Assembly: GCF_003334385.1 (NCBI RefSeq)
Contig: NZ_QOWN01000001.1
From: Escherichia coli
GTDB lineage: Bacteria > Pseudomonadota > Gammaproteobacteria > Enterobacterales > Enterobacteriaceae
Length of the DNA: 64,000 nucleotides
Direction: 5' to 3' (one strand)
Every line of letters begins with the position of its first letter. Positions within the stretch are counted from its first letter, which is position 1. Of the stretch, positions 27,001 through 33,000 are shown one piece after another. The position numbers are program-made.

Positions 27001-30000
27001 TGACTCACAATGGGCGGCAATTTGTTCCATTGCTCCAAAGACTGGCTGTACGCCGGAGACTCTGCGTGTCTGGGTTCGCCAGTATGAGCGGGATACCGGA
27101 GGCGGTGATGGTGGGCTTACCACCGCTGAACGTCAGCGTCTGAAAGAGCTGGAACGTGAAAATCGTGAACTGCACCGCAGTAACAATATCCTTCGCCAGG
27201 CTTCCGCTTATTTTGCGAAGGCGGAGTTCGACCGCCTCTGGAAAAAATAATGCCACTGCTGGATAAGCTGCGTGAGCAGTACGGGGTCGGACCGGTATGC
27301 AGTGAACTGCATATTGCCCCGTCAACGTATTACCACTGTCAGCAGCAGCGGCATCATCCTGATAAACGCTGTACCCGTGCGCAGCGCGATGACTGGCTGA
27401 AGAGAGAGATACAGCGCGTATACGATGAAAATCATCAGGTGTACGGTGTGCGTAAAGTCTGGCGTCAGTTGTTACGGGAAGGAATCAGGGTGGCCAGATG
27501 TACAGTGGCGCGCCTCATGGCGGTTATGGGACTTGCCGGTGTTCTCCGGGGTAAAAAGGTCCGCACTACCGTCAGCCGGAAAACCGTTGCCACAGGTGAC
27601 CGCGTAAACCGTCAGTTCGTGGCAGAACGTCCTGACCAGCTGTGGGTGGCTGATTTTACTTACGTCAGCACATGGCAGGGCTTCGTCTATGTGGCGTTTA
27701 TCATTGATGTGTTTGCTGGATACATCGTGGGGTGGCGGGTCTCATCGTCTATGGAAACGACATTCGTGCTGGATGCGCTGGAGCAGGCGTTGTGGGCCCG
27801 TCGTCCGTCTGGCACCATCCATCACAGCGATAAAGGCTCTCAGTATGTGTCACTGGCCTATACGGAGCGACTAAAAGAAGCCGGATTACTGGCATCAACA
27901 GGGAGTACAGGCGACTCGTATGACAACGCGATGGCTGAGAGCATCAATGGTCTTTACAAAGCGGAGGTAATACACCGTAAGAGCTGGAAAAACCGTGCAG
28001 AAGTGGAACTGGCCACACTAACGTGGGTGGACTGGTATAACAATCGACGATTGCTGGGAAGGCTGGGCCATACTCCTCCGGCAGAAGCAGAAAAAGCTTA
28101 TTATGCTTCCATCGGAAACAATGATCTGGCAGCCTGAGTTCACAGATAAAACACTCTCCAGGAAACCCGGGGCGGTTCAGTTTATGGGTTTGGGATGAAA
28201 CGGGAAAACCAACAAGAAAAACATGGGATCCTCAGACTGAAGACTGGTCAGAGGACAGCAAGGCCGGTGGAGCCGATAATGTTTTTAAATCACGTTTGCC
28301 AAGACCAATGCGAATTAGATCACTGGATGATGCAGCGACTACAGAAGAGACATTGCTCACTCTTGCGTTGACTCCCTTAGTGAAAGAGTTGAAGGCTCTG
28401 GAGTGTAATAAAGAGTCACAAATATCAAAAGTTAAAGCAGCTTTGGTTAAAGCTGTAAATGAGATCGCTGAACCTCATCAAGAACGATTTTCTTCTATTT
28501 CTCGACAAATTCAGACAGGGTTTCAACATGTCTTTCCTGCTCTTGGTGTTCAGCTCAGTGTTGAAATGAATCCACCTGAGCTTAAAATAGACAATTTATT
28601 AAAGCAGGGGTCTGGTTTATTAGTCAAAGAGGCTGCGGGAAACTCTCGCATTGGGCAACAGGGGACAGGAGCAAGACGAGCTCTTTTTTGGGCAATGCTC
28701 CAGGTTCATAATGAAATTAGCCGACAAAATGAAAAGCGAGAAGCTCTTCTTAAATCCTTTAGAGAACAACTTAAAAAAGAGGTGAGGAAAAATGTAAAAA
28801 GTGAAAATATAAATCTTCTGAAACAACAAATAGATGCTATTGAAAATGGCGCCCCTGTTCCTGAAGATACAGACGATCCAGCCTTGCCCGGATATATTCT
28901 TTTAATGGATGAGCCAGAAAATGCGTTACACCCAATGGCTGCCAGAGCGGCGCAAGCGCATCTTTATGAACTTGGTAAACATCCAGATTGGCAGGTGCTA
29001 TTAACAACTCATTCACCATACTTTATAAACCCTCTTGAGGATCATACTACGATTGCTCGTATGCAACGTTCAACAGATGGGAAATCACTTTCTCCACGCT
29101 TGTATGTGGCTGATGAAGCTAACTTCTCACCTGATGAGAAAGATAATTTACAGGCACTACAACTTACAGATATTGGTTTTGCTGAAATATTTTTTGGGAG
29201 TTATCCAATTATTGTTGAAGGTGATACTGAACATGCGGCATTTATTTCAGCAATCACTAAAGAAAAACATGAGATGTCAGGTAAGGTAAGTATTGTCAGA
29301 GCCAGAGGTAAGGCGGTTCTGGTTCCTTTGATAAAGATGTTAAATCATTTTAAAGCAGATTTTGGGATTGTACATGATATTGATTGGCCTTATCGTAGAG
29401 ATGGTTCGAATAATGGTTCATGGACGCTTAATACGATCATTAGAAATGAGATTATAAAATGCAGGAATAATGGGAAAAAAGTATATCATCGTTGGAGTGC
29501 CCCCGATTTTGAGCGTTTTTTAGGTGGTGAGGAGTTGGGGAAAGATAAACCCTATACAGCATTTAATCGAATTTCGCGCGATGAAAAATTAAAAGAAAAG
29601 ATTCAAAATCTTATAATTAATTTGTTTGAAGGGGAGTGTTATGATCCTGATGACTTTGAACCCGATGATGATTTTAATGCTCAACTCATGGAACAATTAA
29701 AAATATGGGCAAAAAATAATGGTGAAAGTGATAATGTTCGCGTTATGGGATGCTGATTATAACATTGGTTAATGGCTGGGTTTCATATAAATGACTTTGC
29801 ATAACTAATTCGTTTTTGCTGTTTTTATATAAAGCCTTTAGGACGTTGTGGAAGGGGAAGTGTTGCAATTTATTCAGTGAGATAGTTTGTTTGTAGGGTA
29901 TTTAAACGCATTTTGGTGATCATTTGTTGTTCAGGATAGTGTGGCGAATATGAATGGTAAATATAATGTCAGGAGTGAATTGTTAGCTCGTTGTATCGGA

Positions 30001-33000
30001 ACAGGTAGATTGAAAGGAGATGTGGTAAGTGATTTTATTGGGTTTAATGGTAGCAAACAGATAGGTTATGTTTTATTAACTTTATTTTTAATAAAAGTAA
30101 TAAATCCTGATTTGCTCTCTCATTATCGTATATTTAATCGTTTTTTGCGTTATGAGAGAAAAGTTATGGATATATATAATTCTTTGAGTGATATAGAAGT
30201 TGATTGTATTTGCCGGGAAGTGATGGCTATATATGAACATACTCAGCGATGCTGCAACGAAAAGAAAATTACAACTGTCCAGTTAGGCAGGAAACTTAAT
30301 GGCAGGTATGCAGATATGATTGCTGAGTTAAAAGAAACAGCAGAGATGAGGGGGGAGGGGGTAATTTCTTTTGAGATGGATATATTGAATTCTTTTAATG
30401 ATGCGAATGAATATCACGGACGTGTTAAACTGGAATTGGATATACCTGCTTCAGATATATTATATTGCCATGATTTTATTGATTCAGAACATGTAAACTC
30501 CTGGCTGGTTGAACCACATGAGTGGGTGGTTATTAATCGTTCTCTTACTGGGATTGTTACAGTGCCAGTATCAGCAATAAAAATCTCTTATTGAAAAAAT
30601 TTATGTATGTAGCTTACTTTATATATAAGGGTAAAAACGATCTCTGTAATAATTAATTAAATATTATTTAATGTTTGTTGCTATGTATTGGAGATATCAA
30701 CGGGTTTCTTTTGCATAAAGTAAAAATAAATGAATGATAATTTATTAACGGAGAAAGTCCTTACTGGAGAGAATGTTCTGCGTGCAGCAATTGCTCGTAT
30801 TGAGTGGATTTTTGAAACATTTCCATCAGTTTGTCTCTCTTTTTCCGGGGGTAAAGATTCCACCGTGCTTTTCCATCTTTTGGCTGATGTGGCCCGCAGG
30901 AAAAAACGTCGTTTCTCTGTACTGTTTATTGACTGGGAGGCTCAGTACCAGTGCACCATTGAACATATTCAGAAGATGCGGGAAATGTACCATGATGTGA
31001 CGGAAACCTTTTACTGGGTGGCACTTCCCCTGACCACGGTAAACGGCGTCTCGCAGTTTCAGCCGGAGTGGATATGCTGGGAGCCAGGAGTGACCTGGGT
31101 TCGCCAGCCACCGGAAGAGGCCATTACAGACATGACGTATTTCCCATTTTATCGGTATGCCATGACGTTTGAAGAATTTGTTCCGGCATTTTCTTCCTGG
31201 TTTGCAGACAATAAATGTGGTGTGGCAGTACTGACCGGTGTCCGTGCGGATGAGTCCCTTAACCGGTTCATGGGACTGGTGTCCCAGCGCAAACTGAGAT
31301 ACGCCGATGATAAGCCCTGGACCACGGCATCGCCTGAAGGGTTTTACTACACCATGTATCCACTGTATGACTGGAAAACTCGTGATATCTGGATATATCA
31401 CACCAGAACCCGTGCCATCTACAATCCCCTGTATGACCTGATGTACCGTGCCGGCGTACCGTTACGCAACATGCGTGTCTGTGAACCTTTTGGTCCTGAA
31501 CAACGTAAGGGACTGTGGCTTTACCATGTTCTGGAGCCGGATACCTGGGCCAGGATGTGTGAGCGGGTATCAGGGGCTGCCAGCGGGGCACTTTATGCCA
31601 ATGAAAGCGGTGCTTATTTTGCCCTGCGCAAGCGCATATCAAAACCAGCCCATCATACCTGGCGCAGCTACGCGATGTTTCTGCTGGATGTGATGCCGGA
31701 AAGAACAGCAGAACATTACCGCAACAAGATAGCTGTCTATCTGCGCTGGTATCAGACGCGGGGCTTCCCGGATGACATTCCCGATGAACAGGAGAATGAC
31801 CTGGGCTGCCGGGATATCCCGTCCTGGCGACGTATCTGTAAGACTCTTATAAAGAATGATTTCTGGTGCCGGACGCTGTCCTTCAGCCCGAACAAACCCC
31901 GGCACTATGAACGTTACCTGCAGCGTATGAAGGAAAGGAGGAATGAATGGGGGATTCTGTGACACCTGAAGTGGAGGTACTGAGTGACATGATTCGTCAG
32001 TACTTCAGCCAGGAACGATCAGAAAAAGAGACTATACAGGCTCTGAATCATCTGCGCAGGGTACTTCATGAAGTCAGCCCTTTTGCACAGGAGCCTGTGG
32101 ACTGTGTGCTGTGGGTGAAAGCAGATGAGGTGGTGGCCAACGATTATAACCCCAATGTCATGGCGCCGGGTGAGAAGAAACTGCTGAAGCAGTCACTGGA
32201 GAAAGATGGTTTCACCCAACCCGTGGTGGTGTCGGCGGAGAAGAACCCCTATCTGGTGGTGGATGGTTTTCATCGTCAGTTACTGGGCAGGGAAGCAGGT
32301 ACAGGAAAACGCCTGAAAGGCTGGTTGCCAGTGGCCTGTATTAATCCGGAAAGAAAGGGACAGGCCACACGTATGGCGGCCACCATACGGCATAACCGGG
32401 CCAGGGGTAAACACCAGATAACCTCAATGTCTGATATTGTCAGGGACCTGTCACGCCTGGGCTGGACGGATGAACGCATTGGTACAGAGCCTGGGGATGG
32501 ACCAGGATGAAGTGCTGAGGCTGAAACAGATTAGCGGACTGACGGAGTTGTTTCAGGAAGAGGATTTCAGCCCGGCATGGACGGTTCGCTGAGACCGTCA
32601 TATATGAGTATTATTTCAGTGAGTTGATGTTTTGAGCAGGAAAAATAGTACCCCGGAAGTCGTGGAAGACATGGTTGCACAGAAGCTGGAGGCGGCGGGT
32701 TGCTGGCGCAGAGCTTCTGCCCGCTGGCTTTTTGTTATGGGAAATGTTGAATGTACAGAAGCACAACGGGAGTGGTTGTTGTTGCGCCGGAATTATTGTC
32801 TGGCGCAGATATCGTCCCCGCCGCTACCTGAAAAGCTGGATATCAGCGAAGTGGCGAAAGCTGCAGATGCCACGCTGAGGCGAATGGGGATTGCCAGCCC
32901 GTCCGGGGAGATATTCAGAAAAGGTACACCGGTCTGTTGATATTCAGGTAACAGGTATTAATGATGAAGAAAGATATGGCGGACAGTGTGTCAATGACAT

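Follow-up and report, generated by a model that had tools for sequence, protein, structure and literature searches.

A beheaded Class 1 OLD nuclease gene at an IS629-like border in an Escherichia coli pathogenicity island, and a separate neighbouring gene with a predicted ADP-ribosyltransferase-like fold

Within a window of 64,000 nucleotides of Escherichia coli DNA (contig NZ_QOWN01000001.1, assembly GCF_003334385.1), we have analysed a remnant of an OLD-family ATPase/Toprim nuclease gene, the insertion sequence (IS) that truncates it, and the gene for a 214-residue protein that follows. The IS, an IS629/IS1203-like member of the IS3 family, is 1311 bp long and lies on the plus strand at 26870–28180. 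It contains orfA (26924–27250) and orfB (27250–28137), both on the plus strand, and an ALIL frameshift pseudoknot at 27205–27321 (120.9 bits with the Rfam ALIL model). Its inverted ends are TGAACCGCCCCGGG.../...CCCGGGGCGGTTCA, and a copy from O157 annotated as IS1203 shares 96.9% identity with it. An Rfam scan of 26500–31000 gave no retron RNA, and the only intergenic structured RNA it returned was the IS pseudoknot. No target-site duplication is found around the IS, the left flank being GCCGGAT and the right flank GTTTATG.

The OLD remnant (28182–29756, plus strand) comprises 524 codons. Its frame opens 2 bp past the IS end, into which it runs, and closes with a stop codon at 29754–29756; codons 1–102, Walker A among them, are missing, as are a promoter, a ribosome-binding site and a start codon. 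This agrees with the initial annotation, which had described a 5′-truncated OLD-family gene fused to the IS border. That annotation also had the open reading frame starting 18 bp past the IS. The OLD reading frame does lie there, but the ATG found 15 bp past the IS, at 28195, is in a different frame and yields just 58 residues, and the OLD frame is already open from 28182. The earliest in-frame starts are a TTG at 28296 and an ATG at 28308. From the latter, RefSeq annotates a coding sequence (CDS) of 482 residues, not a pseudogene. The G+C content of the OLD gene is 39%, against 47% for the window.

The conserved motifs downstream of Walker A are retained, all on the plus strand, as follows. 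An ABC-signature-like segment (ABC, ATP-binding cassette), QQGTGARRALFWAML, is at 28656–28700, with G263, G265 and R268 invariant across the family and in P2 Old. Walker B and the D-loop, ILLMDEPENALHP, are at 28896–28934 (E346-P347-E348 and H352 invariant), and the H-loop LLTTHSP is at 28998–29018 (T378-H379-S380 invariant). The Toprim core extends from 29208 to 29387 and includes IIVEGDTEHAAF with the VEGDTE glutamates (29208–29243), the GK motif (29298–29318) and the DxD motif IVHDIDW (29367–29387); its residues E448, G449, E452, G478, K479, D501 and D503 are invariant, P2 Old included. In the alignment, the columns of every retained motif show conservation both within the family and with P2 Old. 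The Walker B, LLTTHSP and Toprim motifs named in the initial annotation are therefore all present. Its further observation, that a P-loop is absent and the N-terminus lost, likewise holds: no P-loop occurs in the window, nor in any frame from the IS end to Walker B. The fragment matches the PADLOC model 'Old' (PDLC02358) at 1e-49 over profile positions 139–523 of 578. Against Pfam, it matches OLD-like_TOPRIM (PF20469) at 3.7e-8 and AAA_15/AAA_21 at their extreme C-terminal ends only, and there is a weak signal for DUF2813, the YbjD family, in the ATPase region.

Intact versions in related strains, anticipated from the window sequence alone, do exist in E. coli. A megablast of 28181–30720 against 5426 complete E. 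coli genomes identified 133 genomes with most of the query. In one of these, the mouse strain RSHH22, the upstream DNA continues without an IS and encodes a P-loop, LVGPNNSGKTT, in a copy decayed by frameshifts. When the RSHH22 upstream DNA was used as the query, this N-terminal segment was present in 24 of the 5426 genomes. Six are mouse isolates with the frameshift-decayed copy; in the other 18, the segment lies within a CDS annotated 'ATP-dependent nuclease'. The two of the 18 that were opened (L005:9018–10898; L006) both have an uninterrupted gene of 626 codons, with Walker A, GPNNSGKTT, at residues 33–41. Measured against these intact alleles, the window sequence starts exactly 306 nucleotides into the gene, at codon 103, so that the missing N-terminus amounts to 102 codons and includes Walker A. 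An alternative upstream start with a P-loop is ruled out, since the frame enters the IS end and the lost 306 nucleotides are absent from the genomes that carry the junction.

That junction is widespread. A 160-bp probe spanning the IS–OLD border has a full match in 108 of the 5426 genomes, including CFT073, a sequence type 69 (ST69) strain and ATCC 11775, and the OLD fragments of these three differ from the window by 0–2 nucleotides. CFT073 belongs to phylogroup B2, and ST69 to phylogroup D. In a wider protein collection, the exact 482-residue product was counted on 949 contigs and a second 482-residue variant on at least 1000, against 243 for the intact 626-residue protein; hence the beheaded allele is the commoner one. 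Public databases already label the gene 'Old-like' or 'ATP-dependent nuclease'. The RefSeq 'ATP-dependent nuclease' CDS of 482 residues, on about 2000 contigs, is a beheaded fragment and should not be counted as functional in censuses of defence systems. Between the window copy and the intact allele there are 18 synonymous and six non-synonymous codon differences, which are not assignable to the period after truncation. Since the truncated copies differ by only 0–2 nucleotides, their comparison is uninformative about selection on the truncated allele. The genomes listed with the N-terminal DNA include none of the IS-truncated strains examined, and therefore the 5′ part has been deleted, not displaced.

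The left side of the IS has a different history from the right. Compared with the IS at the same junction in CFT073, the window IS has 40 substitutions, none of them beyond the first 1035 bp, and is identical over the last 275 bp; the element is thus a mosaic. The left flank in the window and in ATCC 11775 is an IS256 pseudogene adjoining ireA. In CFT073 (L001:2941–4689), it is a C-terminally truncated 'AAA domain' gene of 583 residues resembling superfamily 1 (SF1) helicases, which directly follows a tRNA-Phe (pheU/V) integrase. The lack of a target duplication, the mosaic IS and the differing left flanks are what one would expect of recombination between IS copies in which the left part of the IS was replaced together with its flank. 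A plain insertion, with the 5′ half of the gene just beyond the IS, is ruled out by these left flanks and by the lack of a target duplication. Nor is the CFT073 'AAA domain' pseudogene the lost N-terminus, as it is SF1-helicase-like and not collinear with OLD. Separately, that helicase-like gene is possibly another defence gene destroyed by an IS.

We suggest the following course of events. A single ancestral event would have fused the right end of an IS629-like element to OLD codon 103, so that codons 1–102, with the Walker A P-loop of the ABC-type ATPase, were lost along with the start codon and the promoter. Subsequent recombination between IS copies would have swapped the left flank, giving the IS256 pseudogene and ireA in the window and the helicase-like gene in CFT073. 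The lost 5′ part is probably gone from the junction genomes and was not relocated, and the beheaded allele would then have spread along with pathogenicity islands of extraintestinal pathogenic E. coli (ExPEC).

The intact alleles also indicate to which OLD class the gene belonged. The intact protein scores 227 bits (1.2e-67) with the PADLOC model 'Old', over profile positions 3–524 of 578, and its best GajA and AriA models give only 78 and 73 bits. The best match by sequence to a solved structure is the Class 1 OLD of Thermus scotoductus (6p74, E = 2e-12). Aligned with P2 Old and eight homologues, the protein has Walker A, a GxGxxR signature-like motif, Walker B, the H-loop, the two Toprim glutamates, GK and DxD, all of them conserved. 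More than 1000 homologues of about 626 residues and 50–80% identity are found in Enterobacterales, Rhizobium, Caulobacter, Legionella and Stenotrophomonas. OLD classes are defined by gene context (reviewed in PMC10568477), and in nine contexts of relatives with 51–80% identity, the neighbours are mutually unrelated, with no conserved helicase, AriB or reverse transcriptase. Thus, an intact homologue in Morganella/Enterobacter (78% identical; L008–L010:5001–6881) stands alone between convergent P2-type tail operons, a Klebsiella relative adjoins amn, a Legionella pneumophila homologue follows a DUF2130 gene after a gap of 22 bp, and the Caulobacter, Stenotrophomonas and Rahnella relatives are alone or beside unrelated genes without a Pfam domain. 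Because the relatives are lone genes in varied contexts, the gene falls in Class 1 of the scheme of PMC10568477. The intact 626-residue protein is a Class 1, lone-gene OLD, neither Gabija nor PARIS. The initial annotation had compared the motifs with those of Gabija- and PARIS-type nucleases as well, a comparison that does not survive the margin of 227 bits over at most 78 and the lack of a conserved helicase, AriB or reverse-transcriptase neighbour.

Two observations on these contexts are worth recording. The Morganella/Enterobacter gene is flanked by a tail-fibre assembly gene and, on its opposite side, by the genes for gpU, tape measure, tube and sheath; this moron-like site is not that of the classical P2 old/tin locus. 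Downstream of OLD in Caulobacter and Stenotrophomonas, within 30–39 bp, comes an unrelated gene without a Pfam domain (with the Legionella case, L014–L016:3699–6908). Lineage-specific two-gene arrangements of OLD may exist in some relatives.

The other classes were each considered and rejected. For Class 2, or Gabija, the gene downstream encodes the 214-residue protein, and the sole UvrD-like gene is about 1.9 kb upstream, past remnants of a type VI secretion system (T6SS), and is kept in genomes without OLD. For Class 3, the retron effectors, the NCBIfam model retron_eff_Eco8 gives 25.7 bits against a cut-off of 250, and the intact loci have no reverse-transcriptase gene. For PARIS, the AriA models cover only the last 45 or so residues of the ATPase, around Walker B, the Toprim domain is OLD-like (PF20469) and no AriB match is found. 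GajA (Class 2) and AriA/AriB are built from the same ABC ATPase and Toprim blocks and appear as secondary profile matches; the window gene, in contrast, has no adjacent GajB helicase and no separate AriB/DUF4435 protein, and its scores with their models are far under that with 'Old'.

To our knowledge, the only Class 1 proteins with anti-phage data are P2 Old, Vc OLD and YbjD. P2 Old (P13520) is like the intact protein in being a lone gene, in that 'Old' is the best PADLOC model for the intact protein, and in its collinear layout of an ABC ATPase (Walker A, GxGxxR, Walker B, H-loop) followed, C-terminally, by Toprim (EG..E, GK, DxD); moreover, relatives of the window gene occur in P2-type prophage tail clusters. 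The differences are nevertheless considerable. The two proteins share 23% identity over 440 residues (E = 1e-15), P2 Old scores 712 bits with the 'Old' model against 227, the intact window-type protein has, ahead of Walker B, some 45 additional residues that form a helical insert, and the window copy is without the 102 N-terminal residues. In a tblastn search of 50,697 phage records, P2 Old was not among the matches at E ≤ 1e-5. Judged by sequence, the intact protein is a distant, not a close, relative of P2 Old. The Thermus scotoductus OLD is likewise a lone gene, and its match covers Walker A and the region from Walker B through Toprim, but the similarity is limited to the motif regions; no anti-phage role is known for it (PMC10568477). 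Vc OLD and E. coli YbjD, compared here by description only, are chromosomal or island-borne lone OLD genes (PMC12392090, PMC13261556). They differ in mechanism: Vc OLD nicks DNA, and YbjD can dispense with its Toprim domain. Since the mechanisms of these two differ, a Class 1 mechanism is not simply transferable.

With this caution, homology suggests how an intact copy would work. The ABC ATPase, with its inserted helical dimerisation region, would sense a cue associated with infection; ATP binding or hydrolysis would license the C-terminal two-metal Toprim nuclease, and the resulting cleavage of nucleic acid would lead to abortive infection. In OLD proteins, a sensor of the ABC-ATPase type is coupled to a Toprim nuclease, and the killing of recBC cells by P2 Old depends on its Walker A lysine and on the metal ligands of Toprim (PMC10568477). 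In P2 Old, ATP hydrolysis activates cleavage of the tRNA anticodon stem (PMC12445682), and the protein has been described as an inactive tetramer for which aberrant DNA structures are the activating cue and which opens when destabilised (preprint 10.64898/2026.07.10.737580). The defence by Vc OLD, a DNA-nicking protein, needs both ATPase and nuclease residues (PMC12392090). With Walker A and the initial strands of its ATPase fold gone, and with P2 Old and Vc OLD dependent on their ATPase, the window copy is expected to be non-functional and its product, if made at all, inactive.

We consider it very probable, then, that the remnant, now an inactivated pseudogene, derives from an anti-phage nuclease gene of the single-gene, Class 1 OLD type, and that the 214-residue protein is encoded by a separate gene, probably for an ADP-ribosyltransferase. 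The view of the locus as the wreck of an anti-phage system is supported to this extent: it is the beheaded remnant of an OLD-type defence gene. Three points weigh against this interpretation. Neither a further stop nor a frameshift interrupts the truncated frame in any of the copies inspected, and RefSeq calls a CDS of 482 residues in it; as the inspected copies are nearly identical, the intact frame says nothing on selection. A Walker A point mutant of YbjD is reported to have retained its anti-phage phenotype (PMC13261556), and therefore ATP binding is not universally essential in lone OLD proteins, although the loss of 102 residues goes much further than a point mutation in Walker A. Lastly, the mechanism suggested for the intact protein would be drawn from relatives of about 23% identity that differ among themselves, one a tRNase and another a DNA nickase.

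The first of these points could be read otherwise: the truncated reading frame, open in more than 100 genomes through selection, might still be expressed, from an outward promoter in the IS end or an internal one and from ATG 28308, as an ATPase-less Toprim nuclease, a regulator or a decoy. The frame is indeed intact wherever it was inspected and is called as a CDS by RefSeq; every Toprim catalytic residue is kept, a weak promoter-like site lies at 28252–28280, 5′ of the internal starts, and, with the P2 OLD nuclease restrained in its tetramer (preprint 10.64898/2026.07.10.737580), a deregulated fragment is conceivable. Promoter-like sites are, however, at chance level (nine found, against 9.2 expected in shuffled sequence), and no Shine–Dalgarno sequence precedes ATG 28308, where the sequence is GCCAAGACCAATG. 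The differences of 0–2 nucleotides allow recency alone to explain the open frame, and the older, independent lineage of the mouse strains has decayed by frameshifts. Furthermore, the first 102 residues include core strands of the ABC fold, not the P-loop alone, and a constitutively active nuclease would be toxic and hence unlikely to spread. Expression of a functional fragment is, in our judgment, improbable.

As posed, the finding is one more case of an IS inactivating a defence gene, here on an ExPEC pathogenicity island; the pseudogene is ordinary and its defence type known. The clade of 626-residue proteins is a candidate Class 1 OLD lineage for anti-phage testing, with intact alleles identified, e.g., WP_225526271.1.

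The gene for the 214-residue protein lies at 29950–30594 on the plus strand, possibly extended to 217 residues from a GTG at 29941, and has a G+C content of 34%, against 47% for the window. The intergenic spacer (29757–29949) is conserved from about 29802 in genomes without OLD, which align with the window from 29802 or 29815 onward. Because it is conserved where OLD is absent, this part of the spacer belongs with the 214-residue gene and is probably its promoter region. About 330 complete E. coli genomes have the gene, at 89–90% identity, and no OLD gene. In these OLD-less genomes, it is directly 3′ of T6SS vasL remnants and 5′ of ibrA; the junction resembles a deletion or an insertion at an ACTAA microhomology, with the last vasL codons altered.

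These data bear on the proposal of the initial annotation that the downstream gene could be a partner or effector, i.e., that OLD and the 214-residue protein form a two-gene defence system of a sensor/nuclease and its partner. The two genes are adjacent, co-oriented and 193 bp apart, and both are AT-rich (39% and 34% G+C). The 214-residue gene is directly downstream in every inspected E. coli genome with an intact OLD, and its product may belong to an enzyme class from which toxins are often drawn. Yet the roughly 330 genomes retain the gene without OLD, and tblastn searches at nine loci of OLD relatives with 51–78% identity found no homologue nearby (E > 0.2). In one Serratia marcescens genome, the homologue (64% identical) comes after tssF-G-J-E, vasL, a helix-turn-helix (HTH) gene, KwaA (2e-71) and KwaB (3e-122), thus after a Kiwa system and not after OLD. 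The protein's own relatives sit in integrative and conjugative elements (ICEs) and islands without an OLD gene. The two-gene system is largely refuted and must be considered very unlikely. Instead, the 214-residue gene is a separate, intact and solitary gene, the conserved flank of a variable slot and not a part of the OLD system.

The slot itself, from vasL to the 214-residue gene, holds OLD in some E. coli (L005:3943–15132), Kiwa and the HTH gene in Serratia marcescens, or nothing in about 330 E. coli; the other loci examined were L017:4182–8714 and L003:3684–5792. The intact E. coli locus lies among matches to PADLOC defence models, PD-Lambda-1 (1.5e-88) and a NERD+UvrD candidate. A gene for a type I restriction subunit is also found downstream in that locus. 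It is reasonable, though not proven, to regard the position as a variable slot for defence genes on the border of a T6SS island, with three states seen, and this slot is a useful by-product of the analysis. In the ancestral layout, the 214-residue gene would have flanked the slot at the end of the T6SS cluster. The least likely reading of all, which makes OLD the GajA-like half of a Gabija-like system, with the 581-residue NERD+UvrD protein encoded about 1.9 kb upstream in the intact locus as its helicase (PADLOC candidate C3a187 6e-138; GajB weaker, 1e-20) and with secondary GajA matches in the OLD protein, fails because a hypothetical gene and the VasL remnants split helicase from OLD, because the helicase persists in genomes without OLD and is absent beside OLD relatives elsewhere, and because 'Old' beats the best GajA model by about 150 bits.

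The initial annotation had found no recognisable domain in the 214-residue protein, and sequence searches agree: Pfam, PADLOC, NCBIfam, PHROG and the PDB sequences gave no match. The predicted fold tells another story. A single-sequence search recovered five clusters only, and a profile search 53, mostly of 300–350 residues and 30–37% identity, none with a Pfam domain; the family profile found nothing among PDB sequences. The hosts include Vibrio, Ochrobactrum, Mesorhizobium, Agrobacterium and Iodobacter, and the contexts are ICE transfer genes, an AlpA island and lone insertions between housekeeping genes. Among six contexts, BLAST identified no conserved neighbour such as an immunity gene or a hydrolase. 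An AlphaFold model from 48 sequences (predicted local distance difference test, 90.7; predicted TM-score, 0.88) has a helical N-terminal half and a β-rich C-terminal half. In a Foldseek search of AFDB50, the protein's own family is followed by proteins named dinitrogenase reductase ADP-ribosyltransferase, at E of about 3e-10, and an earlier, weaker model gave a similar list. The predicted fold thus resembles the R-S-E ADP-ribosyltransferases weakly but consistently.

The conserved residues of the family point the same way. All 48 sequences share R114 and N147-S148, and 47 of them E188 and E191. The candidate triad, on the plus strand, consists of R114 (within 30280–30297), S148 (within 30373–30402) and E188/E191 (within 30508–30540). 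By alignment and model, these residues are on or beside predicted strands in the order expected for R-S-E, as the triad is defined in PMC8120803. The fold predicted for the protein resembles that of the R-S-E enzymes DraT, the C3-like toxins, Tre1 and Lmo0066, and the 48 homologues keep an Arg on a strand, an N-S motif on the strand pair that follows and a Glu-x-x-Glu immediately ahead of a strand. Against this assignment, the Glu motif is ExxE and not [QE]xE, and the Pfam model DRAT (PF07357) does not match the window protein and matches one of 48 family members at E = 0.017.

On the strength of the model, the gene probably encodes a divergent ADP-ribosyltransferase of the R-S-E type; that the protein is an active enzyme we put at a little short of an even chance. 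With neither a hydrolase nor an immunity gene as cognate, such a protein would more likely be a modifier under tight control, aimed at a target in the host or an invader and serving in defence, anti-defence or addiction, than a classical secreted toxin. It is tempting, if still somewhat doubtful, to propose that the gene represents an undescribed, solitary family of DraT-like R-S-E ADP-ribosyltransferases on ICEs and islands of Proteobacteria and, separately, that the 626-residue OLD clade, common in Enterobacterales and Alphaproteobacteria, is a Class 1 lineage with a trigger and a substrate of its own. The gene gains in any case a specific prediction, an ADP-ribosyltransferase fold with named candidate catalytic residues, and this neighbour, as far as a structural prediction can tell, may be a more interesting object than the OLD remnant. 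No paralogy was found between it and a second gene of 214 codons at 32961–33605.

The stretch as a whole is an ExPEC-type pathogenicity island, in the order ireA, IS256-family pseudogene, IS3-family element, 'ATP-dependent nuclease', hypothetical protein, PAPS (3′-phosphoadenosine-5′-phosphosulfate) reductase (ibrA-like), frameshifted IbrB-like gene, PerC, two hypothetical genes, pgtABCP and the pap operon. The annotations were taken from the O15:H18 ST69 strain, which has a 100% identical stretch, and from ATCC 11775, which has the same gene arrangement. The siderophore receptor gene ireA is at 23482–25530 and the frameshifted IS256-family transposase gene at 25870–26869 on the minus strand. 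The IS629-like element abuts or interrupts the latter, leaving nested IS debris directly 3′ of ireA. The PAPS-reductase-like ibrA has a weak match (5e-7) to BrxP, the BREX PAPS reductase; a literature search on ibrA/ibrB returned nothing on-topic, only unrelated items on the retinal barrier. The IbrB-like (ParB-like) gene 3′ of ibrA, at 31947–32600, has a frameshift near 32490 relative to an intact allele of 212 residues, and the RefSeq annotations of CFT073, the ST69 strain and ATCC 11775 mark this defect too.

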